Assembly (NCBI GenBank): GCA_964619675.1
Contig: CAZUEO010000001.1
Location: forward strand, 2,138-66,137
DNA from: an uncultured Planctomycetaceae bacterium
GTDB taxonomy: Bacteria > Planctomycetota > Phycisphaerae > Sedimentisphaerales > UBA12454
Reading direction: 5' to 3'
DNA length: 64,000 nucleotides
Numbering within the stretch: the stretch's first letter is position 1; every line of letters begins with the position of its first letter. A program made the position numbers and the translations under genes. Shown here one piece after another: positions 1 through 62,287 of this stretch. The notes under the pieces were generated by a model, which was not told where the DNA came from, did no database searches, and saw only the letters and a list, made by a program, of their open reading frames with translations.

Positions 1-1
1 T

Positions 2-148
2 TATAAATCCGCAAGAAATATTCCGAAAATATCCGTAATGAAGGTGGCAGACCTCAACGCAGGCAATATCTGCAATACGCAGAAGATGCTTTTCACAAAA
101 GATGCCTTTCTTGCGGTGGTTGAGAGAAACAAAAATGGACGATCATGA
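2..148 (+). CDS. rplD: 50S ribosomal protein L4, C-terminal fragment (gene begins upstream of window)
   Basis: The frame-2 translation is YKSARNIPKISVMKVADLNAGNICNTQKMLFTKDAFLAVVERNKNGRS*. It resembles the conserved L4 C-terminus (ARN..K..V...LT.DA...V.E). It lies directly upstream of L23, and its TGA at 146-148 overlaps the rplW ATG at 135. Confidence 0.75.
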   Translation, partial: YKSARNIPKISVMKVADLNAGNICNTQKMLFTKDAFLAVVERNKNGRS

Positions 149-413
149 AATAGTCATAAGGCCTTTGATAACCGAGCAGAGCACGCATCTTGCGAACGTT
201 AAGAGAGCATACTCGTTTGAGGTAAACAGGAAGGCCAGCAAGAATCAGATAAAAGGTGCCGTCGAGAGATTGTACAACGTGAAGGTAACGGATATAAGAA
301 CTGCCAACCGCAGGGGAAAGCCGCGAAGACGGGGCAGATTTATGGGAAAAACATCGGACTGGAAAAAAGCGGTTGTCGTGCTCGATGAGCAATATCATAT
401 TGATTTGTTCTAA
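135..413 (+). CDS. rplW: 50S ribosomal protein L23
   Basis: MDDHEIVIRPLITEQS...YSFEVNRKASKNQIKGAVERLYNVKV is a typical L23 sequence. The ATG at 135 inside ORF 102..413 gives the canonical length of 92 aa. Confidence 0.93.
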   Translation: MDDHEIVIRPLITEQSTHLANVKRAYSFEVNRKASKNQIKGAVERLYNVKVTDIRTANRRGKPRRRGRFMGKTSDWKKAVVVLDEQYHIDLF

Positions 414-444
414 GAAGTCAGAGATGAAAAAAAGAATTTAATTT

Positions 445-3400
445 ATGATGTTTGAGCCAAAAATATTGCTATTTATTGCGGTTGCTTTATTGTCGCAGAC
501 TTTCTTTGTTTTTGCAAGGCCGTATTATTCTGCCGACTTAAACGAAGATGAGTTTGTTGACTTTATCGACTTTGCAAAGTTTGCAGCGAACTGGCAGCAA
601 AGCGGGGAGAACATCGACGGAGATTTTGACAATAGCGGTTTAGTCGATGTTAACGATTTGCAACACTTTACACAGTATTGGTTGGAAGATGTGATTTATC
701 CTCCGATAGTGGAAGACCAGAATGTTATATTAACTCAGGGACATTCAGCAGGTATAGTACTCCAAGCAAACGATGAAAATAATGATGTTCTTGATTACTT
801 TGTAATAAGCTATCCTGCACATGGGGCTCTCGTGCTTGACGGCAATATGGCAGGTTACAATCCGTTTGCGGCTTATGACGGCAACGACAGCTTTATATTT
901 CTTGCCTATGACGGTAAATATGAAAGTGATATAGCAACGGTTTCCATTACTGTTCGGCCGGATACCGATGGAGACGGCCTTTCTGACTATGACGAAATCA
1001 ACGCTGTTTTCGGATATATTACCGACCCCTGTAACCCCAATTCAGATTCTGATATTATGCCGGACGGATGGGAAGTAGAAAATAGCCTTAATCCAACAGT
1101 CGATGACGGTAGTGGAGATGCCGATGGTGATGGACTTTGTAATGCAGATGAATATACCTATGGAACTAATCCGTATGTTCAGGATACTGACGGTGACGGT
1201 CTTCAAGATGGAATAGAAGTTAGCCCTGCCAATGGCTATGTAACAAATCCGACTAATCCTGATACCGACGGCGATGGTGTTAAAGATGGAGACGAATTAA
1301 GCTGGAATCTCAATCCGCTTGATACGGATACTGATGACGACGATTTAAATGATGGTGCTGAAGTTGCTTTCAACGGCAGTCAGGATTATAATCCGGTTCC
1401 GCCGGGTTATTATCAAGGTGATTTCAGAAATTACGATACCGATGCTAATGACTCGGATTCAGATACTGACGGTATGACCGACGGCTGGGAGGCACAATAT
1501 ACGCAGCCGGACAGTGAATATCTGGACCCCAGATACAAAGGTATAAGCTCATGGCTTGATGCGGAAAAAGATATAGACACTGATGGCTTAAAAAACATAG
1601 AAGAGTATCTCGGGCAGTATGGTAGTTATCAATTTGCTTGCAGTACAAATCCTCGAAACTGGGATACGGATGGTGACGGTGAGTGCGACGGAGACGAAGC
1701 TGGTGCGGACTTCTGGACACCATACACCTACAGGAGTGACCCTACTTTAATTGATACTGATAGTGATGGATTGGTTGATGGCTGGCATGGCGTAGTAAGT
1801 GCTCAAAGCTACCCGGAAGGGGTTGTTGTGGGCGGGTATGTTGTGGGTGAAAGGAATTATTCCACTAATACCCTTGATGATGATACTGATAATGACTCTA
1901 TGGGTGATGGGTGGGAAGTCAGGTATAGCAATGGCACTTTCAATCCCACCGTCAATTATTGGCGTAATGACGATTTTGATAGTGACGGCCTTAAGAACTA
2001 CGAAGACTCCCAGCAGGATACTGACCCCTGGAACTGTGACCATGATGGTGATGGGTTAGATGACGGCTGTGAGGTTAATGTATCAGGCACAGAACCTAAG
2101 AACGCCGATACGGATGGTGATAATCTTGTAGATGGTCTGGAGATAAACAGCTACCAGACTAATCCATTGGATTTCGATTCCGACGACGATTTGTTGCCGG
2201 ACGGCTGGGAGGTTCAATACAGCCTTGATCCAAGCAGCAGCATCGACAATAACGGCAAAAATGGAGACCCTGATGGTGATAATCTGATTAATTTTGACGA
2301 GCTTGTTTACGGTACAAATCCGCAGCAGGGCGATAGCGACAGTGACGGCACGAACGACGGGGCAGAAGTGGCACAGGGCAGCAATCCGGCCGACGGCTCT
2401 GACGGAGGCCAGACGCCAGCGGAAGATAAATACCTGAATGTAAAACTGACCGTAGGCGATCATAGCGGCAGTCATTCGGAGCGTTACAATCTTAAAGTCG
2501 GCTCAATTACGCATCAGGCCCCTGAATTCGGAGTTGTAGAAGAAAGAGGTTATCCCTTCGAGGTGGGCAAAAAATATGAAATCAGGATAATACATACCGG
2601 CAGCAATATATCGCCGCCGGATTATGACTATACCGCTCTTATTGAGCCGAATGAAACACTGGATGGCGTGGGCATTGTGATTGACGACCCGGAGGGGATA
2701 CTCGGTATTCATAGTGAGAGCACTTATTTCTATGCCAGGGGCAAGACAGCTTACCTTTATGTAGTCAAGTCAAGTCTGAAGATATACAACGGCGGCAACA
2801 ACGGCATCGCAGGCAGTGAATTTCCTGATGCAAACGAAATGGATTTGGGTTCTTATTTACTGGTCAACTGGGATGACGATGACGAGGATGATAAGCCTGA
2901 TTTATATAAATCAGGAACGGTCAGCGGCGATGACGATTTGGCTAAGATTGAATTATCCCTGCTGCCTGCCGAACTAAACAAAGGGACGCTCGAGTTTGTG
3001 AAAGCCGGCGGTACCGGCTGCAATGTTAAAATCTGGGATAGTGCCGATAAGCAAAACGAAATAACCGACCTTAGCTGGGATATTGCCAGCCAGACGCCGC
3101 CGAGCCAGTTGTGGCTCGAAGCGACGGCGGCAAGTAATTCCGAGCGTGATATTTCATTGGAACTAAGATATACCAATAACGGCACAACAATAGCTGATAC
3201 AGTCAAAGCCACCGCAGTTATGGTAAATCTCGGTAACGCTGTGTATAGAGATAATGAAGTTGGATGGGGTGTTGACCCGGAAAGAGGACATGCCGCGATA
3301 GTGTATAAATATACGGGTGCTTGCGCGCAAGATGCTTTTGATAGTGCCGATAACTTCGGGATTATAGCAATGAAGGGACCATCTGGTGACAAAACTTTAG

Positions 3401-3918
3401 CAAATATAACAAATTCTGGTGACCCATGTTATGGCTGTTACACGAACGTATCAGATATCACTTATGCCAAAAGGATTGCAATTATTAAAACAGCTAAGGA
3501 ACTTGCAGAGAGAGAGATTGAATATGAGGCTCTTAATGCGCTTATACCTCACAAGTGGGATGGTGCAATTAACAGCATTACTGACTTGCGCTGCGACGGG
3601 TTGGTTGAAGTATGCTATGAATTGAACGGTATTAATGTCTGGGCAATGAAACGTAATTACTACGGAATGAGTTATAACTACGATATTAGTGATTGGATAG
3701 ACATTTTAGAGTACGACAATCATGTTTGGCAATCTGGAGCAAATAATAAAAACGATAACTTAGAGGAACACAATGATTTTGATGTTGGTGATGAAAATGA
3801 TTGGAACGATACATTGCAGCCGGCAACTCAATGTGGCTATGTAACTCCGGTAGATGCAAAAACAAAATTTTCAAGGCAGGATTTATGCCAGCCCATAGGT
3901 CATAAGGGAGGGAACTGA
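445..3918 (+). CDS. Secreted multidomain protein: signal peptide, dockerin-like module, cadherin/Ig-like domain, about 17 thrombospondin type-3-like Ca-binding repeats, acidic beta-rich region, and a C-terminal putative permuted papain-like (NlpC/P60-YiiX-like) domain
   Basis: The N-terminus MMFEPKILLFIAVALLSQTFFVFA is hydrophobic. DLNEDEFVDFIDFAKFAANW plus DFDNSGLVDVNDLQHFTQYW form a dockerin-like pair. DxDxDGxxDxxE motifs recur repeatedly. Near the C-terminus, ERGHAAIVYKY (His codon 3289-3291) is followed about 100 aa later by LRCDGLVEVCYE (Cys codon 3592-3594), a His-then-Cys order. Confidence 0.8.
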   Translation: MMFEPKILLFIAVALLSQTFFVFARPYYSADLNEDEFVDFIDFAKFAANWQQSGENIDGDFDNSGLVDVNDLQHFTQYWLEDVIYPPIVEDQNVILTQGHSAGIVLQANDENNDVLDYFVISYPAHGALVLDGNMAGYNPFAAYDGNDSFIFLAYDGKYESDIATVSITVRPDTDGDGLSDYDEINAVFGYITDPCNPNSDSDIMPDGWEVENSLNPTVDDGSGDADGDGLCNADEYTYGTNPYVQDTDGDGLQDGIEVSPANGYVTNPTNPDTDGDGVKDGDELSWNLNPLDTDTDDDDLNDGAEVAFNGSQDYNPVPPGYYQGDFRNYDTDANDSDSDTDGMTDGWEAQYTQPDSEYLDPRYKGISSWLDAEKDIDTDGLKNIEEYLGQYGSYQFACSTNPRNWDTDGDGECDGDEAGADFWTPYTYRSDPTLIDTDSDGLVDGWHGVVSAQSYPEGVVVGGYVVGERNYSTNTLDDDTDNDSMGDGWEVRYSNGTFNPTVNYWRNDDFDSDGLKNYEDSQQDTDPWNCDHDGDGLDDGCEVNVSGTEPKNADTDGDNLVDGLEINSYQTNPLDFDSDDDLLPDGWEVQYSLDPSSSIDNNGKNGDPDGDNLINFDELVYGTNPQQGDSDSDGTNDGAEVAQGSNPADGSDGGQTPAEDKYLNVKLTVGDHSGSHSERYNLKVGSITHQAPEFGVVEERGYPFEVGKKYEIRIIHTGSNISPPDYDYTALIEPNETLDGVGIVIDDPEGILGIHSESTYFYARGKTAYLYVVKSSLKIYNGGNNGIAGSEFPDANEMDLGSYLLVNWDDDDEDDKPDLYKSGTVSGDDDLAKIELSLLPAELNKGTLEFVKAGGTGCNVKIWDSADKQNEITDLSWDIASQTPPSQLWLEATAASNSERDISLELRYTNNGTTIADTVKATAVMVNLGNAVYRDNEVGWGVDPERGHAAIVYKYTGACAQDAFDSADNFGIIAMKGPSGDKTLANITNSGDPCYGCYTNVSDITYAKRIAIIKTAKELAEREIEYEALNALIPHKWDGAINSITDLRCDGLVEVCYELNGINVWAMKRNYYGMSYNYDISDWIDILEYDNHVWQSGANNKNDNLEEHNDFDVGDENDWNDTLQPATQCGYVTPVDAKTKFSRQDLCQPIGHKGGN
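529..690 (+). other. Dockerin-like / EF-hand-like duplicated segment at the mature N-terminus of the 1157-aa protein
   Basis: SADLNEDEFVDFIDFAKFAANWQQSGENIDGDFDNSGLVDVNDLQHFTQYWL has two D-x-[ND]-x-[DS]-x-x-V-D segments, each followed by an amphipathic helix. This is the dockerin type I pattern. Confidence 0.6.
961..2367 (+). repeat. Protein-level array of about 17 thrombospondin type-3-like calcium-binding repeats
   Basis: The units run from DTDGDGLSDYDE through NSDSDIMPDGWE, DADGDGLCNADE, DTDGDGLQDGIE, DTDGDGVKDGDE and others to DPDGDNLINFDE and DSDSDGTNDGAE. I counted them by eye in the translation. Confidence 0.8.
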
Positions 3919-3920
3919 TT

Positions 3921-5099
3921 ATGAAAATTTGTAAAATTATCCTAATCGCTCTAATACCAGCTATAGCATTCCAGGTCAAAGCCGATGTGAATTACTGGCA
4001 GACTATGGAACAATTGCGAAAAGGAAATGCTGCTGATGCGAATATAACTTTCAAAGAATATGTAGAGTCTCTTAGTGCCGAGCAGTTGTTGGTTGCTGCC
4101 AGGCAATGCTCTAAAGAGGGACAGGAAAAAGTAAAGCCCGAGAGCTGGGACATAGCAATTGCGGCACTTGGTTTTTTTTATAAGTATTATCCTTTGGAGA
4201 CAAATAATCTTGAAGATATTTCGCCATTACTGGCTGATCTTGGAGATAAATCGCAACCGGCATTTTGGCGTTATTCACTTATGCAGCTTTTGGGCACTTC
4301 TTGGAATGAGAAACTTACTTTGCAGCAAAGTTTAAACGCTGCAAATGTTATGAAAATAATACTTGCAGATACACATGAGTTGAGATTTATCAGGGTGAAA
4401 GCAGCAAGAAAATCCACAGGGCTTTTTATAAAGGCTTATAGTATAAATCTCCGCGAAGACCCAGAGGTTAAGCGGCTTGTTGCAGAATGCAGGAGATATG
4501 AGGATGTTCTGGAAGATGCCGAAAACGGCAAAGTGCAGGTATCAGAAGAAACTGTCGAAAGGAATAAGCAGATTGAGGCAGCTATAGCCGACTCAATACA
4601 GGCGCAAATCGCTCTTTTAGCCGAGCCAAACATTCCGGTCTGTCTCGGACGTAGTCTTATTGGTAGCCTGATTGAACTTCGCGGCTATGACAGTGCCGGA
4701 CGGATAAAGCAGGCAATGAATAACGCACTGCAAAATTACAAAAACTACGATGAACAACTCTGGTTTCGGTTTGCAAGAACAAATATCATTTACTTCCAAA
4801 ATGAAGAGGCCGAGTCAATTCTGCAGCAGATGATTAGCGAAGTTAAAAGTGAACATGAGAAAAAGGAGCATTTAATCAGGTTAAAAAAAGAGTTGGATAA
4901 AGGTGAAATTGAGAAGCAGCCTCTTGTTAGTTGTCTGGTGGAATTGCCAGAGCCAGAGGTTGCCGAACCTGTAGATGTTAATGAGATGGTAAACTGGCTT
5001 GAGAAAATCTGGCTTGAAGATGAGTCGATAAGGGAGATAATAGATTCGAATCAGTGGCAGAAATTAATAGAGACCGTGAAACAGCAAACGGAAAACTAA
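3921..5099 (+). CDS. Exported all-alpha hypothetical protein (signal peptide, no recognisable family)
   Basis: MKICKIILIALIPAIAFQVKA|DVNYW looks like a signal peptide. The start lies 2 nt after the upstream stop. The helical sequence is rich in E/K/L/Q, and I recognise no motifs. Confidence 0.6.
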   Translation: MKICKIILIALIPAIAFQVKADVNYWQTMEQLRKGNAADANITFKEYVESLSAEQLLVAARQCSKEGQEKVKPESWDIAIAALGFFYKYYPLETNNLEDISPLLADLGDKSQPAFWRYSLMQLLGTSWNEKLTLQQSLNAANVMKIILADTHELRFIRVKAARKSTGLFIKAYSINLREDPEVKRLVAECRRYEDVLEDAENGKVQVSEETVERNKQIEAAIADSIQAQIALLAEPNIPVCLGRSLIGSLIELRGYDSAGRIKQAMNNALQNYKNYDEQLWFRFARTNIIYFQNEEAESILQQMISEVKSEHEKKEHLIRLKKELDKGEIEKQPLVSCLVELPEPEVAEPVDVNEMVNWLEKIWLEDESIREIIDSNQWQKLIETVKQQTEN

Positions 5100-5118
5100 A
5101 ACTTACGAGAAATGAATT

Positions 5119-5970
5119 ATGGGTATAAGAATATACAAACCAACGTCAAACGGACGGCGAAATTCGTCAGTCAATGATTATGCGGAACTGACGACGGACC
5201 GGCCGCAGAAGAGTCTCTGTGTGAGGATAAAAAAGGCCGGCGGAAGAAATAACGAGGGAAAGACCACCTGCCGATTCCGCGGCGGCGGTGCAAGAAAAAT
5301 ATACAGGATTATCGATTTCAAACGGAACAAAGATGCAGTAGCTGCAACGGTAGAAACAATTGAATATGACCCGAACAGAAACTGTTTTATTTCTCTTGTT
5401 CGCTACGACGACGGCGAGAAAAGATATATCCTTGCTCCACAGGGCCTGGCCGTCGGGCAGAAAATACAAAGCGGTTCGAGCGTTGAGCCGAAAGTCGGGA
5501 ATGCAATGCCGCTGGCAGCAATCCCGGTCAGCGTTGAAATTCATAATATTGAAATGACAGCAGGACAGGGAGGCAAACTCGTCAGAGGGGCAGGACTTGC
5601 CGCAAGACTGATGGCAAAAGAAGGCGACTGGGCAACTGTTATCCTGCCGAGCGGCGAAATGAGGATGCTGCGAGTCGAGTGCCGGGCAACAATCGGGACG
5701 CTGAGCAATCCTGATTATCAGAATATCAAAATCGGCAAGGCCGGCAGAATGAGACATCTGGGTATCAGACCGCACGTTCGCGGAAAGGCACAAAACCCTG
5801 TTTCGCACCCGATGGGTGGTGGTGAAGGCAGAGCCAACGGCGGCAGACATCCCTGCTCGCCGACGGGCTTGCCGGCAAAAGGCGGAAAAACAAGAAATCC
5901 GAGAAAGACAGGCAATAAACGAATTATACGAAGAAGAAAAACCAACAGAGGCGAACAATTGATGCTGTAG
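5119..5970 (+). CDS. rplB: 50S ribosomal protein L2
   Basis: [14 protein letters not shown]...[15 protein letters not shown]...HPMGGGEGR are canonical L2 motifs. Confidence 0.97.
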
Positions 5971-5989
5971 TGAATGGACTGAGGCAATA

Positions 5990-6352
5990 ATGACAAGATC
6001 GCTTAAAAAAGGGCCGTTTGTAGATGTGAAGCTTTTGCAGAAGGTTTTAAAGCAGAGCCAGGTCGGCATTAAAGACCCTATTAAAACCTGGTCCAGACGC
6101 AGCACTATTGTTCCGGAATTTGTCGGGTTTACATTCCTCATACACAACGGAAAGACTTTCAATAAGCTTTTCGTTACCGAGGAAATGGTGGGGCATAAGC
6201 TGGGTGAATTTTCAATGACCCGCATTTTCAGGGGTCATTCGGGAGTTAAAGCAGCAGCGGCAGCAGCAGGCGGACCAGTAATGCCGGCAGGGCCGGCAGC
6301 ACCGGGGCCGGCAGCACCGACAGCGGCGCCAGCCAAACAGGCAGGAACGTAA
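5990..6352 (+). CDS. rpsS: 30S ribosomal protein S19 with a 30-35 aa Ala/Pro-rich C-terminal tail
   Basis: [16 protein letters not shown]...[23 protein letters not shown]...MVGHKLGEF is canonical S19. The tail [34 protein letters not shown] is extra. Confidence 0.95.
6290..6319 (+). repeat. Perfect 15-nt tandem duplication (gggccggcagcaccg x2) inside the rpsS tail, encoding [10 protein letters not shown]
   Basis: Read directly from the sequence: 6290-6304 equals 6305-6319. Confidence 0.9.
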
Positions 6353-6353
6353 A

Positions 6354-6902
6354 ATGTTAAGTGCAAATAAACTTGATAATCTGATTAAGCAGCAGGGCAA
6401 AAGCGTTGCCGAGCTGGCTGCTGCGGTAAAACGTGCGGGACTTAGCGAGCAGCAGGCTGTAAGCGCCATAAAAAACTGGCGAAAGGGATTGTTTAAAATC
6501 CTGCCGAGAAAAAGCGATGTCGAGGCGTTAGCTTCGGCTTTCGGAGTAGAAACTGCCGCTATTTCGGAGTGGAGGTCATCAGTAAAATATGCGCCGACTT
6601 CACCGAGAAAGGCAATGCTTGTTACGCAGCTTATCGCCGGCAGAAGCGCACAGGAAGCAATTGACGTGCTGAAATTTACGAGAAAAAGAGCTGCTGAAAT
6701 GGTGCAAAAGGCGTTAAAGAGCGCCATTGCAAATGCTGATGAGACGGGCGCAGATGTCGAGAATCTTTATGTCAGCCAGGCTCGCGTTGACGGCGCAGGC
6801 ATCAGAATCGGCACAAAAAGATGGATAGCGAAAGACAGAGGCAAGGCGTACTCTCTCAGGAAAATGGCCAGTCATATTCATATTACTGTGGCTGAGATGT
6901 AA
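6354..6902 (+). CDS. rplV: 50S ribosomal protein L22 with an N-terminal extension of about 70 aa (HTH-like)
   Basis: The core SPRKAMLVTQLIAGRSAQEAIDVLKFTRKRAAEMVQKALKSAIANA...SHIHITV is L22. The ATG lies 1 nt after the rpsS stop, and the frame stays open through the extension. Confidence 0.9.
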   Translation: MLSANKLDNLIKQQGKSVAELAAAVKRAGLSEQQAVSAIKNWRKGLFKILPRKSDVEALASAFGVETAAISEWRSSVKYAPTSPRKAMLVTQLIAGRSAQEAIDVLKFTRKRAAEMVQKALKSAIANADETGADVENLYVSQARVDGAGIRIGTKRWIAKDRGKAYSLRKMASHIHITVAEM

Positions 6903-7009
6903 ATATAAAACCCGTTAAACGGTTGCGCGGTTCGCAAGCGGTTACGTCAAGCGCAAGACGTTAGACGAAACGAGCGGCGTAGCCGATGAACGAAAAACGA
7001 AAGGTAAAT

Positions 7010-7834
7010 ATGGGTCAAAAGGTTCAGCCGATAGGATTCAGAACCGGCATCAGACTGCCGTGGCAGAGCACGTGGTTTGCTCCCAAGGCCGGTTACGGTC
7101 AGATGCTGGTTGAAGACCAGCGGATTCGCAAATATATAGACAGGAAGTATAACAGGCAGCCGCCATTCGCTGCCGTTTCAAAAGCTGAGATAGCAAGGAC
7201 AAGAAACGAAGTGAAGATTACTCTTCATACCGCAAGGCCTGGTATCGTAATCGGGCCTCGCGGCGCTGAGGTTGACAAGCTCAGACAAGACCTGGAAGAA
7301 ATTATAGGCAGACAGGTAGCCATAAATGTCATCGAAATCAAGGAGCCTGCTCTCGATGCGAGACTTGCCGCTGAAGTCATCGCTGGACAGATGAAGAAAC
7401 GTGTTGCATTCCGAAGGGCTATGAAGCAGCAATGTGAGCTGGCGATACAGGCCGGTGCAAAGGGCGTTAAAATCATCTGCTCCGGAAGGCTCGGCGGAGC
7501 TGAAATGGCAAGAAAAGAAACTCAGATGATAGGCAGCATTCCGCTGCATACCATCGATGCAGACGTTGATTATGCCGCTGTGGATGCCGTAACAACTTAT
7601 GGAACTATCGGCGTTAAGGTATGGATTTATAAAGGCAAATACGGCCAGCGTCTGCAGGAGCAGACCGGCAGAAAAACTCTTAGGAGACCGAGGGCTTTAA
7701 GGAGCCGGGCTAAAGCCGAAGCTAAACAGGCCGTTGCAGAGACTGCCGACGGGAATGAAAACAGCGGTGATGCCGGTGATTCCACGGCGGCGAAACAGAA
7801 TAAACAGGAAGATGTAAGTAAAGGTGAGGCATAA
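7010..7834 (+). CDS. rpsC: 30S ribosomal protein S3 (with an acidic/basic C-terminal tail of about 60 aa)
   Basis: MGQKVQPIGFRTGI...KH-domain...GRLGGAEMAR is canonical. The ATG at 7010 is preceded by aagg. An alternative ATG at 6986 would add 8 aa. Confidence 0.95.
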   Translation: MGQKVQPIGFRTGIRLPWQSTWFAPKAGYGQMLVEDQRIRKYIDRKYNRQPPFAAVSKAEIARTRNEVKITLHTARPGIVIGPRGAEVDKLRQDLEEIIGRQVAINVIEIKEPALDARLAAEVIAGQMKKRVAFRRAMKQQCELAIQAGAKGVKIICSGRLGGAEMARKETQMIGSIPLHTIDADVDYAAVDAVTTYGTIGVKVWIYKGKYGQRLQEQTGRKTLRRPRALRSRAKAEAKQAVAETADGNENSGDAGDSTAAKQNKQEDVSKGEA

Positions 7835-7836
7835 TC

Positions 7837-8259
7837 ATGGCACTTATGCCAAAAAGAGTTAAGTATAGAAAAAGCCAGAGAGGCAAAATGAAGGGGAATG
7901 CCTCAAGGATGAATTATGTCGCCTTTGGCGAATACGGTCTGCAGTCTTTAGAGACGAGCTGGGTAACCGGCAAGCAGATTGAGGCCGGCAGAGTCGCAGC
8001 CAGCCATTTCCTGCAAAGAGTGGGAAAGGTGTATATAAGGATTTTCCCGCATAAGTCCATAACCAAAAAGCCGCTTGAGACGAGAATGGGAAAAGGAAAA
8101 GCCGAAGTTGAACAGTGGGTGGCCTGTGTAAAGTCGGGTGTGGTTATGTTTGAAATAGGCGGAGTCAGTGAGGACGTTGCAAAAAGGGCACTGGCAAGAG
8201 TCGCTCATAAAATGCCGGTAAAGTGCAGATTTGTTACCAGAAGTCATACCGTCGGGTAA
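7837..8259 (+). CDS. rplP: 50S ribosomal protein L16
   Basis: MLMPKRVKYRKSQRGKMKG...RMGKGKAEVEQWVA is canonical L16. Confidence 0.97.
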   Translation: MALMPKRVKYRKSQRGKMKGNASRMNYVAFGEYGLQSLETSWVTGKQIEAGRVAASHFLQRVGKVYIRIFPHKSITKKPLETRMGKGKAEVEQWVACVKSGVVMFEIGGVSEDVAKRALARVAHKMPVKCRFVTRSHTVG

Positions 8260-8265
8260 GGTGAT

Positions 8266-8469
8266 TTGATGAAGGCGAAAGATTTACGAGAAATGAGACC
8301 GGATGAATGGCAGAACGAGCTTGAAAGTTTCGAAAAGCAATTGTTCGACCTTCGAACGAGGGCAGTAACAGAGAAACTCGAAAATACGCACCTGCTGCGG
8401 AATATAAAAAGAGATATCGCAAGGCTCAAGACGATTATCAGGGAAAGCCAGTTAAAGGGTAAAAAATAA
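8266..8469 (+). CDS. rpmC: 50S ribosomal protein L29
   Basis: MKAKDLREMRPDEWQNELESFEKQLFDLR has the L29 pattern, and the gene sits between L16 and S17. Confidence 0.93.
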   Translation: MMKAKDLREMRPDEWQNELESFEKQLFDLRTRAVTEKLENTHLLRNIKRDIARLKTIIRESQLKGKK

Positions 8470-8739
8470 ATGGAAGGCCAGAGAAAACAAAAAAATACAG
8501 TCAGCGGCACTGTTGTCAGCCGCAGCGGAGACAAAAGTATCAAGGTTTCGCTTGATTACAGGGTGAGACATCCTGTTTACGGTAAATATATGAACAGACG
8601 TACCAAGCTGAGTGTTCATGACGGTAAAAATGAGGCTCAGGTCGGCGATATTGTCGAAGTTGTCGAATGCAGGCCTGTGAGCAAAACCAAAAGCTGGCGT
8701 TTGCTTAAGGTCGTTCAAAAAGCAATTGAAAAAGATTAA
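8470..8739 (+). CDS. rpsQ: 30S ribosomal protein S17
   Basis: GTVVSRSGDKSIKVSLDYRVRHPVYGKYMNRRTKLSVHD...GDIVEVVECRPVSKTKSW matches S17. Confidence 0.95.
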   Translation: MEGQRKQKNTVSGTVVSRSGDKSIKVSLDYRVRHPVYGKYMNRRTKLSVHDGKNEAQVGDIVEVVECRPVSKTKSWRLLKVVQKAIEKD

Positions 8740-8756
8740 CAGTAAGGGATAAAGCG

Positions 8757-9146
8757 TTGATTCAGCAGGAAACTATGTTGGATATAGCCGATAATTCCGG
8801 CGTTAAGCTGGCACAATGTATTCTGGTTCCCGGCAGAAGATCGAGCAGGAAAGGCAAATATACACGAGCAAAAGCTACAATAGGCGATATTATATGTGTG
8901 GCGTTAAAAAAAGTGCTGCCGAACTGCCAGCTTGACAGGAAAAAAGTTTACAGATGCGTCATAATAAGGACAAAAAAACCCGTCAGAAGAGCTGATGGCA
9001 GTTACGTCAGGTTTGACAGCAACGCTGCGGTAATCATCGACGCCGAAGGCAACCCTGTCGGCACGAGAGTTTTCGGAGCGGTTGCAAGAGAATTGCGAGA
9101 GAAAAATTTTATGAAGATAGTATCGCTTGCAAGCGAGGTTGTATAG
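8757..9146 (+). CDS. rplN: 50S ribosomal protein L14 (TTG start)
   Basis: MIQQETMLDIADNSG...RFDSNAAVIID..GNPVGTRVFG.VARELR matches L14. The codon at 8757 is ttg. Confidence 0.95.
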   Translation: MIQQETMLDIADNSGVKLAQCILVPGRRSSRKGKYTRAKATIGDIICVALKKVLPNCQLDRKKVYRCVIIRTKKPVRRADGSYVRFDSNAAVIIDAEGNPVGTRVFGAVARELREKNFMKIVSLASEVV

Positions 9147-9148
9147 CT

Positions 9149-9481
9149 ATGGCAAGACATATTAAAAAAGGCGATATGGTTGAAGTGATTGCCGGCGAGA
9201 ACAAGGGAATGGTGGCAAAGGTAATGTACATTGTTCCTTCGAAGAACAAAGTTGCCATTGAAGGGGTAAACAGACGTTACAGACATGTAAAGCCCAGCCG
9301 CAAATACCCGCAGGGCGGCAGAATACAGATTGAGCAGCCTGTGCATATAAGCGACGTTTTGCCGGTAAACCCCAAGACCTCAAAGGGCACAAGAGTAAAA
9401 TTTGTCGTCGACAAAAAAGGCGAAAAAAAACGCGTTGGCATCGATGGCACGGAAATCGGAGTAGTCAGGAAAGCTGATTAG
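9149..9481 (+). CDS. rplX: 50S ribosomal protein L24
   Basis: HIKKGDMVEVIAGENKG is a KOW motif, and the gene sits between L14 and L5. Confidence 0.95.
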   Translation: MARHIKKGDMVEVIAGENKGMVAKVMYIVPSKNKVAIEGVNRRYRHVKPSRKYPQGGRIQIEQPVHISDVLPVNPKTSKGTRVKFVVDKKGEKKRVGIDGTEIGVVRKAD

Positions 9482-9487
9482 AAAAAA

Positions 9488-10027
9488 ATGGCAAGGTTAA
9501 AAGACCTGTATAAATCGAAAATAGTTCCCTCTTTGCGGGAAAGATACGGTTATAAGAGCCCGATGGCGGTACCGAAGATACAAAAAATAGTAGTGTCAAT
9601 GGGCGTAGGCAAAGCGGTACAGGACAAAAAGTTCCTCGAAATCGCTTTGCAGGACCTGATGATGATTACTGCGCAAAAGCCGCTTGTCATCCGGGCCAAA
9701 AAGAGCGTCTCCAACTTCAAGGTCAGGCAGGGAGACCAGACAGGACTGAAAGTTACGCTGCGGGGCCAAAGAATGTACGAATTTATAGACAGGCTTGTTA
9801 ACCTTGCGATACCGAGAGTAAAAGACTTCAGGGGCCTGAGCCCCAGAAGCTTCGATGGGCGGGGGAATTATTCGCTCGGTATGAATGAACAAACGGTCTT
9901 TCCGGAAATAGACCCTGCAAAGGTCCAGGCCTTACAGGGTATGGATATAACCTTTGTTACGACGGCTGATACGGACGATGAGGCAAGAGAACTGCTCAGG
10001 ATGTTCGGTATGCCGTTCAGGGAGTAG
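9488..10027 (+). CDS. rplE: 50S ribosomal protein L5
   Basis: RLKDLYKSKIVPSL...KIVVSMGVG...FRGLSPRSFDGRGNYSLG matches L5. Confidence 0.97.
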   Translation: MARLKDLYKSKIVPSLRERYGYKSPMAVPKIQKIVVSMGVGKAVQDKKFLEIALQDLMMITAQKPLVIRAKKSVSNFKVRQGDQTGLKVTLRGQRMYEFIDRLVNLAIPRVKDFRGLSPRSFDGRGNYSLGMNEQTVFPEIDPAKVQALQGMDITFVTTADTDDEARELLRMFGMPFRE

Positions 10028-45045: not shown

Positions 45046-45249
45046 ATGCAATTCGGTAATGGTTTAAAGAAGAATCTGGTATTGTTTACAGCAGTTGTCG
45101 TTCTATCGGTCTGTATTAGCCGGTCCGCCTTTGCTGGCGACTTAAACGAAGATTGCAGAGTTGACTTTGGGGATTTTGCGGCAGTAGCAGAAAACTGGTT
45201 GATTGATTGCCGGCTGACCCAGCAAAATCCGGCCTGCATACCTGAATAA
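45046..45249 (+). CDS. Secreted 67-aa miniprotein: a signal peptide plus a single dockerin-like segment and 3 Cys
   Basis: A strong RBS (aaaggaaaggag) lies 8-9 nt upstream of the ATG. The signal peptide is ...VVVLSVCISRSAFA|G. The mature part GDLNEDCRVDFGDFAAVAENWLIDCRLTQQNPACIPE carries the same motif as the N-terminus of the 445..3918 protein and the C-terminal region of the giant protein. Confidence 0.6.
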   Translation: MQFGNGLKKNLVLFTAVVVLSVCISRSAFAGDLNEDCRVDFGDFAAVAENWLIDCRLTQQNPACIPE

Positions 45250-45363: not shown

Positions 45364-48300
45364 TCATGGTTGATTATCAAAATACGTGTGCCAATCTATC
45401 GAAGGAGCGGTGGTGTTACCGTATTTGTCTTTTGTATAAACTCTGTAGCCGGAATGATTTGTATTTGGGTACGGCCCTGCTCGGTAGTATGGGGTATCAA
45501 TCCAGCCGCTGTCGGTACCGCTGCTGGTGTAGCAATCGAAGTAATACCAGACAACTCCGCTATCATCTGTAGCGGTAGTAGCTGTCATAATATGGTACCA
45601 CCAATCTAATGGATAGTTAGGGTCTAAACCCTGTACGGCTTGAGGCACAGAGGCCCATGTGCTCGGGTTTGGTTGCGGCGGCGTCGTATCATTTGGCTCG
45701 TTTGGCTCCTCGCCTGGGGGCGGTGTGGTAGCTGAGGCAGGAATTGAGTAAGCCGTTTCGTTTTGTGCCGGTGATTTATCGCGAGCCTTTACCCGATAAG
45801 TGTAGGTTGTATTAGGTTCGAGGCCGAGGTCCTCGTAAGTTTCGCTGGCTTGCCAGTCACAATCATGGCAGTCTGGTGGGCTGACACAGTCGAAATAGTA
45901 TTCAGGTGGTCCACAGGCATCGGTGGCGGTCGCTGCCGTCATACTGATTGAGTTCGACGATGTTGGGTGAGGCGCTATTGCCCATAGCATTGGATCCGGC
46001 TGGGGCGGAGCGTCATCCTGGCCTACTACCGCATAGCTGATAATGCTCCAGTCGGTCTCATTGCCTTGTTCATCCTTTGCCTTGACGCGGTAACCGTATT
46101 GTACTCCAATGGTAAGACCGGTGTCGGTGTAGGTTGAATTCGGACCCCAGGGTTGGTCATGACCGCTTCCATATACGCAGTCAAAGTAATATTGTATGGA
46201 TGAACCTGAATTATCTCTGGCGGTGGTCGCTGTCATTGTAATTTTAGTTATATCTGCCGAGTGAGGCCTTATAGCCCATGTCATCGGGTCCGGTTTTGGC
46301 GGAACGGTTTCCGTATCACCGTAGTTTGCGGCAAAGGCTGCAAAGTCTTCAAAGTCAACCTCACCATCTTCGGTTATGTCTCGTTCGTGACAGAAGTACG
46401 GGAAGATGCAGCCTGATCTCATCCAGTACTCGAAAAAGAGACCGGCATCGATATCATCAACAATACCGTCAAAGTTAAAATCGCCGAGTATATCAGCGGT
46501 CAGCGTATAATGGTACCCCATATCAACAATACCTGAATCAATTGCCATGCCTTTAACTGTTACATGGTCTGTTCTTGTAGTGTGTCGGTACATATCATTG
46601 TCGATTGCCGGGCTGGAACCGCTGTTGACACAGTTGCTGTCTACTGTCTGGAGAGGCTCGCCGGTTATAATCTGGCTGAGATAATAGTCTCCCCAGTAGC
46701 CGGTAACAAACAGCGGGCTTGTTAATGTTGTGCCGGTAAGGTTGTTTGCATCGTCCCAGTTGAGTATGCAGCCATTCTCGGTGTCAACAAATACGTTTGC
46801 TGCTCCGTCCTCTACATCGCTGTACCAGACGCTTACTTCGGCTCTTAATTTATCTGCGGCATAGGATGGACTTCCTACTGAGATTTGCGGGCCGTATTCC
46901 GCGTTGTTGCTCCAGATTATACTGTTAATGACTTTTGTGTCGGCTTCGTAAGCACAGCTCAGGCCGCCGCCCATGCCGGTGGCAAAACCGCCGCCTGTTA
47001 TAATGTTGTGTGCTATAGTACAGTTTGAAAGAGTGAGCTGCGCATCCCAGTTGGATGATATCCCGCCGCCGTCCCTGCCGGCGTTGTTGTGTATGATAAG
47101 ACAGTTGTGCATGCTTGGCGCAAGCTCGCCAGAGAAGTAAACTCCGCCGCCGCTTGTGGAAGCTTCATTATTGATGATTTCGCAGTCGTAGAATTTTGCA
47201 TCGCTTGATGCGCAGTAAATCGCACCGCCCTGACCTGCCGGGTCAATAGCTAAATTGCCGTTAAAATCGCATTCAAAGACAATGGAGTTGCTATCGGCAA
47301 GCAGCATAGCACCGCCGAGCATTGAAGTACAGTTTTCAAAATAGCATCTGCTTATGTGGGCGATTGAATCTTCCCAGTACATTCCGCCGCCGGCGCAGGC
47401 CCGGTTATTAATGAAGGCGCAATTTTTGAAGACTGGTATCGCAGTGCCTTCTGCACAGACTGCGCCGCCGTAGCTTACCACCGAGTCGTACAGGACGGTT
47501 TCTTCTATTGTTACTCCTACTGTATCTGGATTGGGTACATTGGGGTCAGAACCTGCTATCTGGCCTCTGGTATGAGCTTCGTTGTCAACAAAGTCACAGT
47601 CTGTGAAATTGGCCTCGCTTCCGGCTGCCATATATACGGCGCCGCCGAACGAGTCGATGGCATAATGTTGCATCGGGTAGCCGGCAATGTTGTCTGTACC
47701 GCTTATGCCGCAGACACCGCCGTAAGCACGGTTGCCCTGGAATAGACATTTCTCAAATTCCGGTTTGCTGCCGCCCATACAGTAAATAGCGCCACCGTAG
47801 CCGCTGTAGTACCAGTATCCCTGGTATGGTCCGAAGTCCCATGTATGATATGCGTTATCATTGGGGTCGCCCCAGTTTCCGCCGTGTCCGCGTCGGCCGG
47901 CACCATCCATACCATTACTGCCTTGAGCGTAGCAGTCTATGAAAGCGCAGTTTTTAAACAGCGGATTGCTTTCAGAATCAATGGCTACGGCGCCACCCCG
48001 TGCCCAGCCTGCCCAGCCGCCGTCTCCCTCGTTGCCTGTACCGTCGCAGCCATTGCTGGCAAGTGCCGAACAGTCGATGAATTGGCAGTTGCGAATTGTG
48101 GGCGAAGCATTGTATAGATTCATCGCGCCGCCGAAAATACTTCCGCCGTTACGACCGTCACCTGTTGGTCCGTGAGCCTCTTCTGGGCTACAGTCAATAT
48201 AGCCCCCATAATAATGAGCATCCTGGATGGATATTCCGTCCAGAATCATAGTTCTGTCGACATTCGCGAGCCGGAAACCGTTGCCCTGCAGGATAGTCTC

Positions 48301-51300
48301 CGCTACTACGCAGGGGTCATCCGGATTTGTGCCGGTAATCGTGATGTTCTTGCCGTTGATGATGATTTTTGCAGGGTCATAATTGGACTCTGAGCCGGCA
48401 TATATTCCCTTGGCAAGAATAATTTTGTCTCCGCTTTTGGCGTCATTTACTGCATTCTGCAGAGAGGTATATTCACCTGGTACATATAGATTTTTCGGTT
48501 GTTCAAATGATACTGTAACCTGCCTGTCGCGAATCATAACAACGTAGTTTGTTATATTGGTTGAACTGTCATCATCTGTGCCTGCCCATTGATTTACTCG
48601 CCAGCCGGCATCGGGTATGGCAGTAAGTTCAACGGTTGTACCGGCATAGTATTGGCCGCTGGGTGGCGCAATATTTCCATGACCGCCGACAGCGGCCGTT
48701 GTAAGATTGAATCGGCCGGGTTTGTTAGCCTCGATGTCGATGTAGTGGTAGCCGATATCAAGCTGGCCCGCATCGCCGGCGTTTATACTGGCATCGCCGC
48801 TGTCAATTCTGGTTGTATAATCAGCCATATTATTATCAGGCAGAACGCTGACATTCGCGGCAAGCGCACTGCCGGCGTCGATAGCCAGGCTGTCGGTATC
48901 ATCCGGGGCAGAAGGAATTTTCTGGCTGAGATAGTATTCGCCCAAATCGCCTGTTACAAATAGCGGCGGGCTTAACGGATTAGACCTGCTACCTGCCCCG
49001 TTGTTGCCGGCAGTTGCACTGTTGAGCGCGTCAATGTTGACATTCGGATCGCTTGTATTAAGTGTCTTATAGGTAATGCCGGAATCACGGTCATAGAAAT
49101 CCCCATCGTAGTTATCATAGAACAGACAGTATGAAATATTCGGGTCGCTGTCATCGCTGCTTTCGTAGATTGCAATTCGTTTTGTTTGGTCGAAGATGCA
49201 GTCTTTTATAATCGGCGAACTGTTATATGCGCAGAGGACTGCGCCGCCATAGCCGCCCGGTTCGGTTCCATTTTCGCTGAAGCTGCAGCTTGTTATTTGC
49301 GGCGAGGAGTTAAGCGCGATGAACACCGCACCACCTCTTGCATTGGCGGAATTTTTGGCAAACAGACAATTATGCATCCTGGAGGTTGTGGTAGAAGGCC
49401 CCCTGAACATAATACCGCCGCCGCTAAACAGCGAAGTGTTATTCATTATTTGGCAGTTGATAATTTCAAGCGGCAGATTTGATATAAAGGCACCGCCGCC
49501 TTCGGCGTTTGTGCCGATAGCTCTGTTGTACATAATGGCGCCGCCGTGAATTTTGGCGGTTGACCTTTCGCTAATGAGGTACAAACCGCCTCCGGCAGAA
49601 GCGGTATTTCTGTTGATATAACAGTTAACGAACGTGGCGTTGAAGTTCTTGGCGGTAATCGCACCGCCTATGTTGCCTGCAATGTTGTCGGTGAAGGCAC
49701 AGTTGTTAAAGTCCAGGACGCATAGATTAGTGTCTGTGGTTTCGCCTATTGCCAAGGCGCCGCCGTCGCCGTTTGAGTCAGTCGCGGTATTTCCACCGAA
49801 GTAGCAGTCTGTTAATTTAATATTGTTATTTGCACCGGACCAGATAGCACCACCGCTGCCCTGCGTTGCACTGTTACCGGTCATATTGCTTTTGGAAATT
49901 GTTATACCGGCACAATTTCTTTCGGAATAGATAGCACCGCCACCAGTGTCGTACATATTGCTGATATCTGCTTGTGTGGTATTGTTGGCAAAGTTGCAAT
50001 CGTTTATGTCGGCTGTAGCACCTGTTTCATAATAGATTGCACCTCCAAAACCTGCGCCGATAGATGCGCCGTCGGAGCCGTCCTGCGGATATGGCGGGTC
50101 ATCCGGTATCAGGCCTGCACCCTGCAGGCCGCCTTGTCCGCCGAGCCCCTGCGAAGCGGTATTTTCAAGGAAATTGCATCTGATTATTTTTGGATTGGCG
50201 CCCGCTGCTGCGTAAATAGCACTGCCGTAACCGCGGCCTGAGCCGTTTCCGCCGTTTCCACCATCGCCGCCGATTTTGTTGGCTGTTCCGTCACTGCCGT
50301 TTCCGCCATCGCCGCCAATGCCGCCTCGTGCGGTGCAATTGCTGATTGTGCAGTTAAGTATCAATGGGCTGCTGTTCTGGCCGCAGAAGAAGACGCCGCC
50401 GTAGCCGTTGCCGGAGCCGCTTCCGCCGCGGCCGCCCTCACCATAACGTGGATGATCTTCGTCGCGAGTATACTCATCTGTAGTCAAGCCATAACCATCC
50501 CGACCATTATTTCCACGTCCACCGGTAACTTCGCAATTGGAAAAGATGCAGTTGCGGATTATCGGGCATGTATTTACATCACAGTATATAGCGCCGCCGT
50601 AACCATTGCCTGTAGCATTATCGCCGTGATAAATAGTATAATTAGGAGAGGCGGGGTACGAGATCATCTCCGGCTGATAACCTTCGGCAATTGAACCAGC
50701 TACCGAACAGTTGGTTATTGTGAAGCCTTCAATAATACTGTTTGCGTCTTCCCCATTTTGGAAGATAAACGCGCGGCCTCCGTTGTTGCAGTCAATAATG
50801 GTCTGCGTGACGACGTTCGGGTCGTTGGGGTCTTCAGAACGTATTTTTATAGCCTTGCCTTTGAAATCCAGACCATTGGGGCCTGTTATATAATGAGGCT
50901 GGCCGTTGGTTTTTCTGTAAACGTAGATGGTGTCGCCGCTTTCAGCAGCGTCGATTGCATCCTGAATATTTTCATATTCGTCAGGCACAATTAGGTTTTT
51001 CGGTGTATAGTATTCAAATCTGACGATAACATGTTTGTTGCTGTCCATAATAAGGGTGAAGTTTTGGTTGTGCGTTTCATAAACTGTGTCGTCGATAATC
51101 CACATAGCCACGCGGCAGTTGACATTCGGGATTGCATGCAGCCTTACCATAATGTTTTCATAGACTTGGTAGGTGTTGCCGGGCAACCAGGGCGCCTCGA
51201 TTGTGCCGTTAACGTCCGGCGGATTGTTCATATCAATTCTTAATTCATAGCGTCGTACATCTGTAGAATAATGATAGCCAAGGTCGACAATATTATTAAC

Positions 51301-61965: not shown

Positions 61966-62287
61966 AAATTTGCTCCATCCTGACAAATTTACATAGCCTT
62001 TTTTGAATTTTTTTACCTCGGTCATTTTTTAATACCCTGCCAAAGTTTATATTTTATGCGCATTACACAATTCAGGCTGAGTCATTATTAGGTCTGTCCG
62101 TAACCTTATTGAACTCTGTCTTCCTCACTGCCTGCCTAAAATTGCCGGCAGTGGAAACCGAGTGTCCCGCCTCCTTAAGCCCCAAACAATTCACAAATTT
62201 TATCAGGCTTTTAATCATATTGCAAGACAAAAACATCAATTTAGCTCTTTCAGCAAGCCTTTCTGGTAAAAGAAGTTCCGTTATTTA

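Follow-up and report, generated by a model that had tools for sequence, protein, structure and literature searches.

A putative exported effector-immunity module between rplW and rplB in the S10 operon of an uncultured planctomycete

Background

The S10-spc-alpha and secE-rpoBC clusters are textbook examples of gene order frozen by selection. Here we describe a stretch of 64,000 nucleotides (nt) of DNA (hereafter the window) from an uncultured Planctomycetaceae bacterium (GenBank assembly GCA_964619675.1, contig CAZUEO010000001.1, positions 2,138 to 66,137, forward strand), in which two open reading frames (ORF1 and ORF2) encoding exported, non-ribosomal proteins stand between rplW (ribosomal protein L23) and rplB (L2), inside the S10 operon. 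We propose that this insert is probably a two-gene, polymorphic effector-immunity-like module of Sedimentisphaerales/Phycisphaerae that is promoterless, is expressed by read-through from the ribosomal-protein (r-protein) genes, and in which ORF2 would neutralise the C-terminus of ORF1.

Envelope-targeting enzymes encoded beside a periplasmic, signal-peptide-bearing protein that neutralises them are familiar from the amidase pairs of type VI secretion systems (T6SS; Tae/Tai, Tse1/Tsi1). To our knowledge, interbacterial antagonism has barely been studied in the Planctomycetota. For polymorphic toxin systems, HEAT repeats are listed among the immunity proteins (Zhang, Aravind and colleagues 2012, PMC3482391). 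Insertions into the conserved r-protein cluster have been documented in Gammaproteobacteria and Bacilli (PMC8046335); the four analysed in detail are of housekeeping genes (tusDCB, bfd-bfr, nrdHEF, ilv-leu), with three lying between operons; nrdHEF is found between rplL and rsmC. Those cases and the present one are alike in that small non-ribosomal gene sets have entered a conserved cluster, whereas the insert described here is a polymorphic exported accessory cassette within the S10 operon itself, with relatives at two further cluster junctions. We found no report in the literature of toxin-immunity cassettes inside ribosomal operons.

Results and discussion

Two exported genes interrupt the S10 operon

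A preliminary description, made from the sequence of the window without database searches, had given the gene order L4-L23-ORF1-ORF2-L2 on one strand, and had proposed that two exported non-ribosomal genes interrupt the operon. The order from rplW to rplB, and gaps of exactly 31, 2, and 19 nt (rplW-ORF1, ORF1-ORF2, and ORF2-rplB, respectively), are confirmed by the sequence, and synteny in relatives bears out the interruption; at the start of the series L23 is intact and L4 is present only as a fragment at the window edge, its gene overlapping the start of rplW by approximately 13 nt (Table 1). The distance from rplW to rplB is 4,705 nt, and the canonical S10 order, in which rplB follows rplW directly, is not found. 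Genes for S19, L22, S3, L16, and so forth continue 3' of rplB on the same strand.

The closest L2 protein, at 85% identity, is that of 'Planctomycetes bacterium GWF2_41_51' (L001), whose rplW product is 82% identical to that of the window, and the L2 sequence places the organism among the Phycisphaerae/Sedimentisphaerales-like Planctomycetota. In 21 of 21 Planctomycetota species representatives, including this closest one, rplW and rplB are adjacent and separated by 9-154 nt (21-33 nt in several close relatives), and neither ORF1 nor ORF2 was found within 10 kb of the locus in any of them. Because rplW and rplB are so closely spaced in all sampled representatives, the insert is lineage-specific and the arrangement is not phylum-wide. 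The 19-nt ORF2-rplB spacer looks, in a by-eye comparison, like the ancestral rplW-rplB spacer of the relatives (ACGA followed by an A-rich run).

The high conservation of L23-L2 adjacency, on which the preliminary description had relied, thus holds throughout the Planctomycetota sampled but not for Eggerthellaceae-type loci, which carry a transporter and other genes, 1.8-6.8 kb in length and on the same strand, at this junction. These include a 6.8-kb cargo of an ABC ATPase, a 1094-amino-acid (aa) permease, and two further genes (L022:2889-10001), a 447-aa transporter (L059:7907-10001), and a 376-aa exported protein (L027:304-1829). Junction and strand are the same as in the window, whereas the cargo is unrelated to ORF1 and ORF2 and the phylum is a different one. 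Some of the Eggerthellaceae-type records are labelled Bacteroidaceae or Phocaeicola and have the appearance of mis-binning.

Window positions 529-9552 (9,024 nt), from ORF1 and ORF2 through rplB to rplE, are matched at 100% identity by an independently assembled Logan contig (run SRR9705735). The contig covers the ORF2/rplB junction and begins at 529, thus not reaching the rplW/ORF1 junction (413/445). The latter is echoed in locus L081, where an ORF1 orthologue is preceded by the same spacer and, ahead of it, the decayed 3' end of rplW. A chimeric assembly is therefore unlikely.

Table 1. Features of the interrupted S10 operon and of two further ORFs, in window positions
Feature	Position	Strand	Description
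rplD (L4), 3' end	1..147	+	Cut by window edge; approximately the last 45 codons in the window; frame translation
rplW (L23)	135..413 (start 102/135)	+	Intact, ends ...YHIDLF*; Pfam Ribosomal_L23 8.5e-30, positions 2-85 of 86
rplW-ORF1 spacer	414..444	+	31 nt, AT-rich, without Shine-Dalgarno sequence; homologous by alignment to the spacer 5' of the ORF1 orthologue in L081
ORF1	445-3918	+	1157 aa
ORF1 signal peptide (MMFEPKILLFIAVALLSQTFFVFA)	445..516	+	Hydrophobic N-terminus, read directly from sequence
ORF1 dockerin-like pair of Ca-binding motifs	535..690	+	Residues 31-82; Pfam Dockerin_1 E=4.4e-4, sub-threshold
ORF1 Big_9 / cadherin-like Ig domain	700..951	+	Residues 86-169; Pfam PF17963 5.2e-8, above cut-off
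ORF1 TSP3-type Ca-binding repeat region	960..2361	+	Pfam TSP3_bac; internal direct-repeat families D1-D7
ORF1, end of conserved 'delivery' region	2362..2781	+	Residues 640-779; closes with motif GKTAYLY; swap breakpoint
ORF1 swappable C-terminal module	2782..3918	+	Residues 780-1157; acidic beta domain (NWDDDDED...) and invariant-residue domain, ends ...GHKGGN*
ORF2 Shine-Dalgarno sequence	3906..3912	+	GGGAGGG, inside the end of ORF1
ORF2	3921-5099	+	392 aa
ORF2 signal peptide	3921-3983	+	Present at the N-terminus of all homologues (alignment)
ORF2 C-terminal tail	4971-5096	+	40 aa, conserved
Promoter-like TTGAAG-16-GATAAT	5014..5041	+	9 of 12 matches; 78 nt upstream of rplB; sole internal candidate
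ORF2-rplB spacer	5100..5118	+	19 nt
rplB (L2)	5119-5970	+	Intact; Pfam L2_N and L2_C both complete
Remaining S10-spc-alpha cluster, S19 to L17	5990..19018	+	ORF lists; Pfam labels from the identical Logan contig
67-aa ORF	45046-45249	+	Strong Shine-Dalgarno sequence, signal peptide, one dockerin-like motif, little else
5553-aa ORF	45364-62025	-	Beta-helix, InlB-B-repeat-like, VWA, and NIDO domains, C-terminal dockerin-like pair

Domain structure of ORF1

The description of ORF1 as a secreted TSP3-repeat protein stands, the TSP3_bac and Big_9 matches in Pfam being real. Its TSP3 region is weakly (sub-threshold) similar to the Myxococcus surface proteins CglD and MtsD. The dockerin-like pair falls short of the gathering score for Dockerin type I (PF00404; 20.8 bits, cut-off 22.9), and two half-sites can be made out. 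The approximately last 300 residues, hereafter ORF1C, constitute the family-defining domain, in which a family alignment reveals H949, C998, R1049-C1050-D1051, E1055, C1057, H1109, C1130, and C1148 to be invariant.

A profile search with ORF1C returned 1838 proteins at E<=0.001, and the family comprises approximately 130 clusters at E<1e-30. Strong full-length matches invariably have the domain at their extreme C-terminus, behind varied fronts (TSP3, PKD, fn3, HYR/SprB, CBM96/LamG, beta-helix). ORF1C itself has no match in Pfam (even at E<=10), NCBIfam, PADLOC, or the Protein Data Bank (PDB; phmmer and profile searches), Foldseek comparisons against PDB and BFVD gave nothing informative for it, and neither a hidden Markov model (HMM) nor a fold match links it to the NlpC/P60 or permuted papain-like families. 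In an AlphaFold2 (AF2) model of moderate confidence (predicted local distance difference test, pLDDT, only 68), H949 lies on strand 89-97 and C1050, within RCDGLV, at the start of helix 191-200. Judged from these motifs, ORF1C may be an envelope-acting Cys/His hydrolase; the H949/C1050 pair with RCDGLV recalls permuted NlpC/P60-like Cys/His hydrolases, which we take as a lead and not as demonstrated membership.

The ORF2 partner and the exchangeable C-terminus

ORF2 is modelled by AF2 (pLDDT 87) as an all-alpha solenoid of 19 helices, for which Foldseek (PDB, BFVD) returned only generic HEAT/ARM-like structural matches. Since 2 nt separate the ORF1 stop codon from the ATG of ORF2, translational coupling of the two genes is suggested; ORF2 has a strong Shine-Dalgarno sequence and ORF1 has none. 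The first part of the conserved tail (VDVNEMVNWLEKIWLED, 4971-4995) resembles the second dockerin-like half-site of ORF1 (VDVNDLQHFTQYWLED, 643-667), the two being recorded as direct repeat D13.

Pairing of the two gene types is widespread: in approximately 40 loci from genomes and metagenomes an ORF2-type gene follows an ORF1C-type domain at a distance of about 2-60 nt. In 26 of 28 pairs ORF2 is less conserved than ORF1C (mean identities of 33% vs 46%), and the two identities are correlated (Spearman 0.46). Three of the close ORF1 homologues are homologous end to end, and five others (P0180, P0182, P0184, P0185, P0190) are 36-81% identical up to residue ~780 and at most 15% identical thereafter, placing a breakpoint just past the motif GKTAYLY. 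In those variants for which flanking DNA could be retrieved (L150/L151 and L152/L153), the next gene encodes an unrelated helical partner that has a signal peptide or membrane anchor. Only the 40-aa C-terminal tail is common to the partners in the window, L149, and L150, and therefore the exchanged block extends from ORF1 residue ~780 to the tail of the partner. One alternative C-terminus (L150:9825-10709) has a His...Cys pattern (YGHSWW ... YNCTDVA) with a small, permuted papain-like look and no Pfam match.

In L089 a full-length gene and partner (1130 aa and 346 aa) are followed by an orphan C-terminus with its own partner (362 aa and 345 aa), and L085 holds a similar tandem; such standalone C-terminus-plus-immunity cassettes are seen in these relatives and not in the window. 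A different derivative is encoded at L082:10001-11932, where the 643-aa P0005 has an ORF2-like C-terminal half fused to an unrelated N-terminal region, with no ORF1C-type gene upstream; it is possibly an immunity-type gene that is orphan or fused. Its neighbourhood includes an EF-G-like gene; P0005 is on the opposite strand and lacks ORF1C, and the locus was not counted as an operon context.

Several traits of polymorphic toxin systems (PMC3482391) are thus present, namely (i) an N-terminal signal, (ii) a varying C-terminus, and (iii) a co-varying downstream cognate gene. The likeness to these systems, in particular to their Sec or 'T2SS' (type II secretion system)-type class, extends to the long repeat-containing scaffold behind the export signal, the sharp recombination breakpoint ahead of the exchangeable domain, the immediate proximity of the cognate gene, the orphan C-terminus-plus-partner cassettes in relatives, and the helical-repeat nature of the partner. 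In contrast to the described systems, the scaffold is composed of dockerin-like, Big_9, and TSP3 elements and not of Rhs, filamentous haemagglutinin, LXG, or MafB; no described Tox/Imm family is matched by the C-terminal domain or its partner; the partner is exported; the locus resides inside core ribosomal or RNA-polymerase operons and not in islands or secretion-system clusters; and toxicity is putative. With the T6SS amidases the pair shares a predicted Cys/His enzyme and an adjacently encoded, signal-peptide-bearing putative neutraliser, but it differs from them in that T6SS genes and a PAAR/VgrG/Hcp context are lacking, that neither an HMM nor a fold match to NlpC/P60 was obtained, and that the effector would be the C-terminus of a 1157-aa Sec-exported protein. 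What is unusual here is the genomic residence, the rplW relic described below, and the uncharacterised domain pair.

Sister cassettes and their genomic contexts

Contexts of ORF1-type (Big_9/TSP3) genes were tabulated for six distinct loci. Besides the window, where the cassette lies between rplW and rplB, L081 (GCA_016930645) carries it between tuf-rpmG and tRNA-Trp-secE-nusG-rplKAJL-rpoBC, and L152/L153 (two independent assemblies, GCA_964568985 and a JGI metagenome contig) carry, between rplL and rpoB, a version whose C-terminus and partner are different. The sites are reciprocally empty, with 103 nt between rplL and rpoB in L081 and 46 nt between rpmG and tRNA-Trp in L152. The gene in L089 has an ordinary neighbourhood, that in L149 (3-1103) adjoins a partial integrase gene, and that in L150/L151 (L150:6740-19684) adjoins an integrase, an MmeI-type restriction-modification gene, and Fic. 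The L149 and L150 cassettes thus sit in a mobile or defence-island setting beside a tyrosine-recombinase gene, and L150 also encodes a PEP-CTERM protein.

The 88 nt between rpmG and the ORF1 orthologue of L081 contain a decayed rplW 3' end. Positions 6530-6571 read ..VVF*EGLSVDLF*, compared with ..VVFLEPEYHIDLF* at the end of rplW in relatives, and are followed by a spacer and an ATGATG start that are shared with the window. The local alignment of this relic scores 37, as against 14 +/- 2 for shuffled sequence, and none of 300 shuffles reaches 37. From the relic and the shared spacer it follows that the L081 cassette once lay directly downstream of rplW and moved together with at least 45 nt of that gene. 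The position downstream of rplW is consequently old in the cassette lineage, the cassettes of the window and L081 being only ~50-55% identical in protein. Downstream of the L081 cassette, a candidate relic of the rplB 5' end did not attain significance (its score was reached in 39 of 500 shuffles), and no further r-protein relics were detected upstream of the cassettes in L089, L149, L150, and L152.

With the window set aside, as it was selected for the trait, two of five loci have core-operon contexts, for which the probability is ~0.001-0.02 on the assumption that 1-5% of intergenic sites qualify. We put forward, tentatively and as somewhat less probable than its negation, the idea that promoterless effector-immunity cassettes of Sedimentisphaerales preferentially colonise core operons (rplW|rplB, rpmG|tRNA-Trp-secE, rplL|rpoB) and move with fragments of r-protein genes. 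A general link of the wider ORF1C family to r-protein genes was considered and rejected, as 0 of 58 metagenome loci have such genes nearby; the twenty genes flanking the wider family have diverse functions. At L097:317-5222 the genes for an ORF1C-type protein of 684 aa and a partner of 262 aa are found directly upstream of groES-groEL, a highly expressed housekeeping operon, on the same strand.

Transcription and proposed mode of action

The preliminary description had seen neither a hairpin terminator nor a -35/-10 pattern in the gaps, and the first of these observations is borne out. A consensus scan of 414-5118 detected no terminator-like site on the + strand, and folding of the three junctions revealed no stable RNA structure (z-scores of -0.6 to +0.9 vs shuffles). 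Promoter-like matches over the same interval number 11, with 13.3 expected by chance from shuffled sequence, although a scan confined to sigma-70-type sites is weak evidence either way where planctomycete promoters are poorly described. The candidate at 5014-5041 does not rise above chance and has no DNA-level conservation in L081, L149, and L150; a conserved promoter in the ORF2 tail was likewise rejected, the tail being conserved in protein and not in DNA. In the island contexts (L089, L149, L150), 450-840 nt of non-coding DNA lie upstream of the ORF1-type gene.

Because there is no + strand terminator and no structured RNA, and the gaps are only 31, 2, and 19 nt, we infer that transcription from the S10 operon promoter would enter the cassette and continue into rplB and the genes downstream. 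ORF1 would then be synthesised only modestly, with ORF2 in surplus. Exported through Sec, ORF1 would use its front three-quarters (dockerin-like, Big_9, TSP3) as a surface or delivery scaffold, and its last ~380 residues would form the exchangeable module with the Cys/His hydrolase acting on the cell envelope. Displayed or released, it would act on the envelopes of neighbours, while ORF2, a cognate helical-repeat binder that is likewise exported, would neutralise the ORF1 C-terminus in the periplasm of the producer.

Composition and signs of mobility

The preliminary description had also considered the insert compositionally different in places. G+C content (GC) and G+C at third codon positions (GC3) are 0.448 and 0.418 for ORF1, 0.411 and 0.397 for ORF2, and 0.478 and 0.490 for the r-protein genes, so that the insert is indeed below the r-protein genes; the 20 ordinary genes of the window span 0.398-0.485 and 0.385-0.509, and the insert is at the low end of this host range yet within it. 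The claim is therefore only weakly true and fails against the background of the genome itself, foreign composition being rejected on GC, GC3, and codon usage alike. A search for imported flanks was uninformative, sliding identity of rplW and rplB to four relatives showing no drop beside the insert.

The absence of mobility genes and repeats reported earlier is upheld. Neither an integrase nor a transposase was found within or next to the insert, the nearest tRNA is 19.5 kb away, and no direct or inverted repeats or target-site duplication bound it, the repeats that were found being internal TSP3 units; the insert does not have the hallmarks of a self-mobile element. Integrase genes do flank the homologous cassettes in L149 and L150/L151.

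Alternative explanations

That an assembly or binning artefact joined a cassette contig to an r-protein contig would be conceivable for a source that is evidently a metagenome-assembled genome, the more so as the left junction (413/445) lies outside the second assembly, which starts at 529. Nevertheless, the 9,024 identical nucleotides from ORF1 to rplE, the preservation of the junction of rplW end, spacer, and ORF1 start as a relic in L081, the analogous insertions in two independent assemblies of another genome (L152/L153), and the intact reading frames with their short gaps leave this explanation with a very small chance. Less easily set aside, although we still regard it as doubtful, is the view that the cassette is ancestral at rplW|rplB in the clade and has been repeatedly lost, in place of a recent insertion. 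The pseudo-rplW of L081 indicates that the rplW-adjacent position predates the divergence of the two cassettes, and the composition of the insert within the host range is a further point in its favour. Many clean losses would, however, be needed to leave 21 of 21 Planctomycetota representatives, including those with 75-85% L2 identity, without the cassette and with spacers of 9-154 nt, and transfer between relatives, with r-protein genes as homology arms, explains the same data.

It is similarly doubtful that the S10 operon is split, with a promoter inside ORF2, towards its 3' end (e.g. 5014-5041), driving rplB onward and the cassette independently expressed or silenced. Such a site does exist 78 nt upstream of rplB, and L152 has a 10-of-12 promoter match just before rpoB; yet promoter-like matches are no commoner than in shuffled sequence, the -10-like hexamer of the window is not conserved in homologous tails, the scan is weak in both directions for planctomycete promoters, and, with no terminator between rplW and ORF1, read-through into the cassette would occur anyway. 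A still less probable reading, in our judgement, is that the pair is not a weapon and that ORF1 is an adhesin or envelope enzyme at the producer's own surface, serving wall remodelling, cohesion, or kin recognition, with ORF2 as its dedicated periplasmic partner, be it a chaperone, an inhibitor, or a specificity factor; the exchange of C-termini would in that case diversify what is recognised or used as substrate, and not toxicity. The weak resemblance to CglD and MtsD, the surface anchoring suggested by the dockerin-like motif, the failure to detect a toxin family, the export of both proteins, and a growth-coupled operon placement that would suit a structural surface component all favour it. 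On the other hand, the orphan C-terminus-plus-partner arrays of L089 and L085 are a signature of toxin-immunity systems and not of housekeeping enzymes, the partner diverges faster than the domain that it accompanies, and the closest relatives lack the pair.

The effector-immunity reading is thus the one that we favour, and several points weigh against it. Neither protein matches a described Tox, Ntox, or Imm family (Pfam, NCBIfam, PADLOC, PDB sequence and profile searches, Foldseek against PDB and BFVD), and no known delivery apparatus (T6SS, type V or type VII secretion systems (T5SS, T7SS), Rhs, PAAR) is present that would take a Sec-exported protein to the periplasm of a neighbour. The ORF1C model is of moderate confidence and the hydrolase reading is taken from motifs alone; in the window rplB comes directly after ORF2, with no orphan cassette in between; the sigma-70-only scan leaves room for an internal promoter; and the core-operon count is small (3 of 6 distinct loci), with a possible bias towards well-assembled conserved regions.

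Other features of the window

No second copy of the cassette is present elsewhere in the window, and one 67-aa ORF alone shares the combination of a signal and a dockerin-like motif; it is 44% identical to ORF1 residues 3-50. The neighbouring giant 5553-aa ORF probably encodes a huge surface protein. Among the r-protein genes at 5990-7834, S19 (120 aa in all) has an Ala/Pro-rich C-terminal tail, S3 (282 aa) has a long, acidic, Lys-rich C-terminal tail, and L22 is 182 aa long, which we take to be an N-terminal extension relative to typical lengths.

Conclusions

The occurrence of an accessory, fast-evolving, exported pair at three junctions indicates that core operons can serve as landing sites or expression platforms for conflict genes, and prompts one to ask how 4.7 kb of foreign coding sequence can be accommodated by the stoichiometric synthesis of r-proteins. 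Since r-protein synteny is used for binning, phylogenomic marker extraction, and operon prediction, such insertions can break the assumptions involved. The ORF1C family and its exported helical partner are candidates for a new envelope-targeting effector-immunity pair. If core operons are indeed preferentially colonised, the location would provide growth-coupled, very high expression and protection against deletion, and the ultra-conserved flanks could act as homology arms for transfer between species, an 'operon-hitchhiking' strategy that has not been described for conflict systems.

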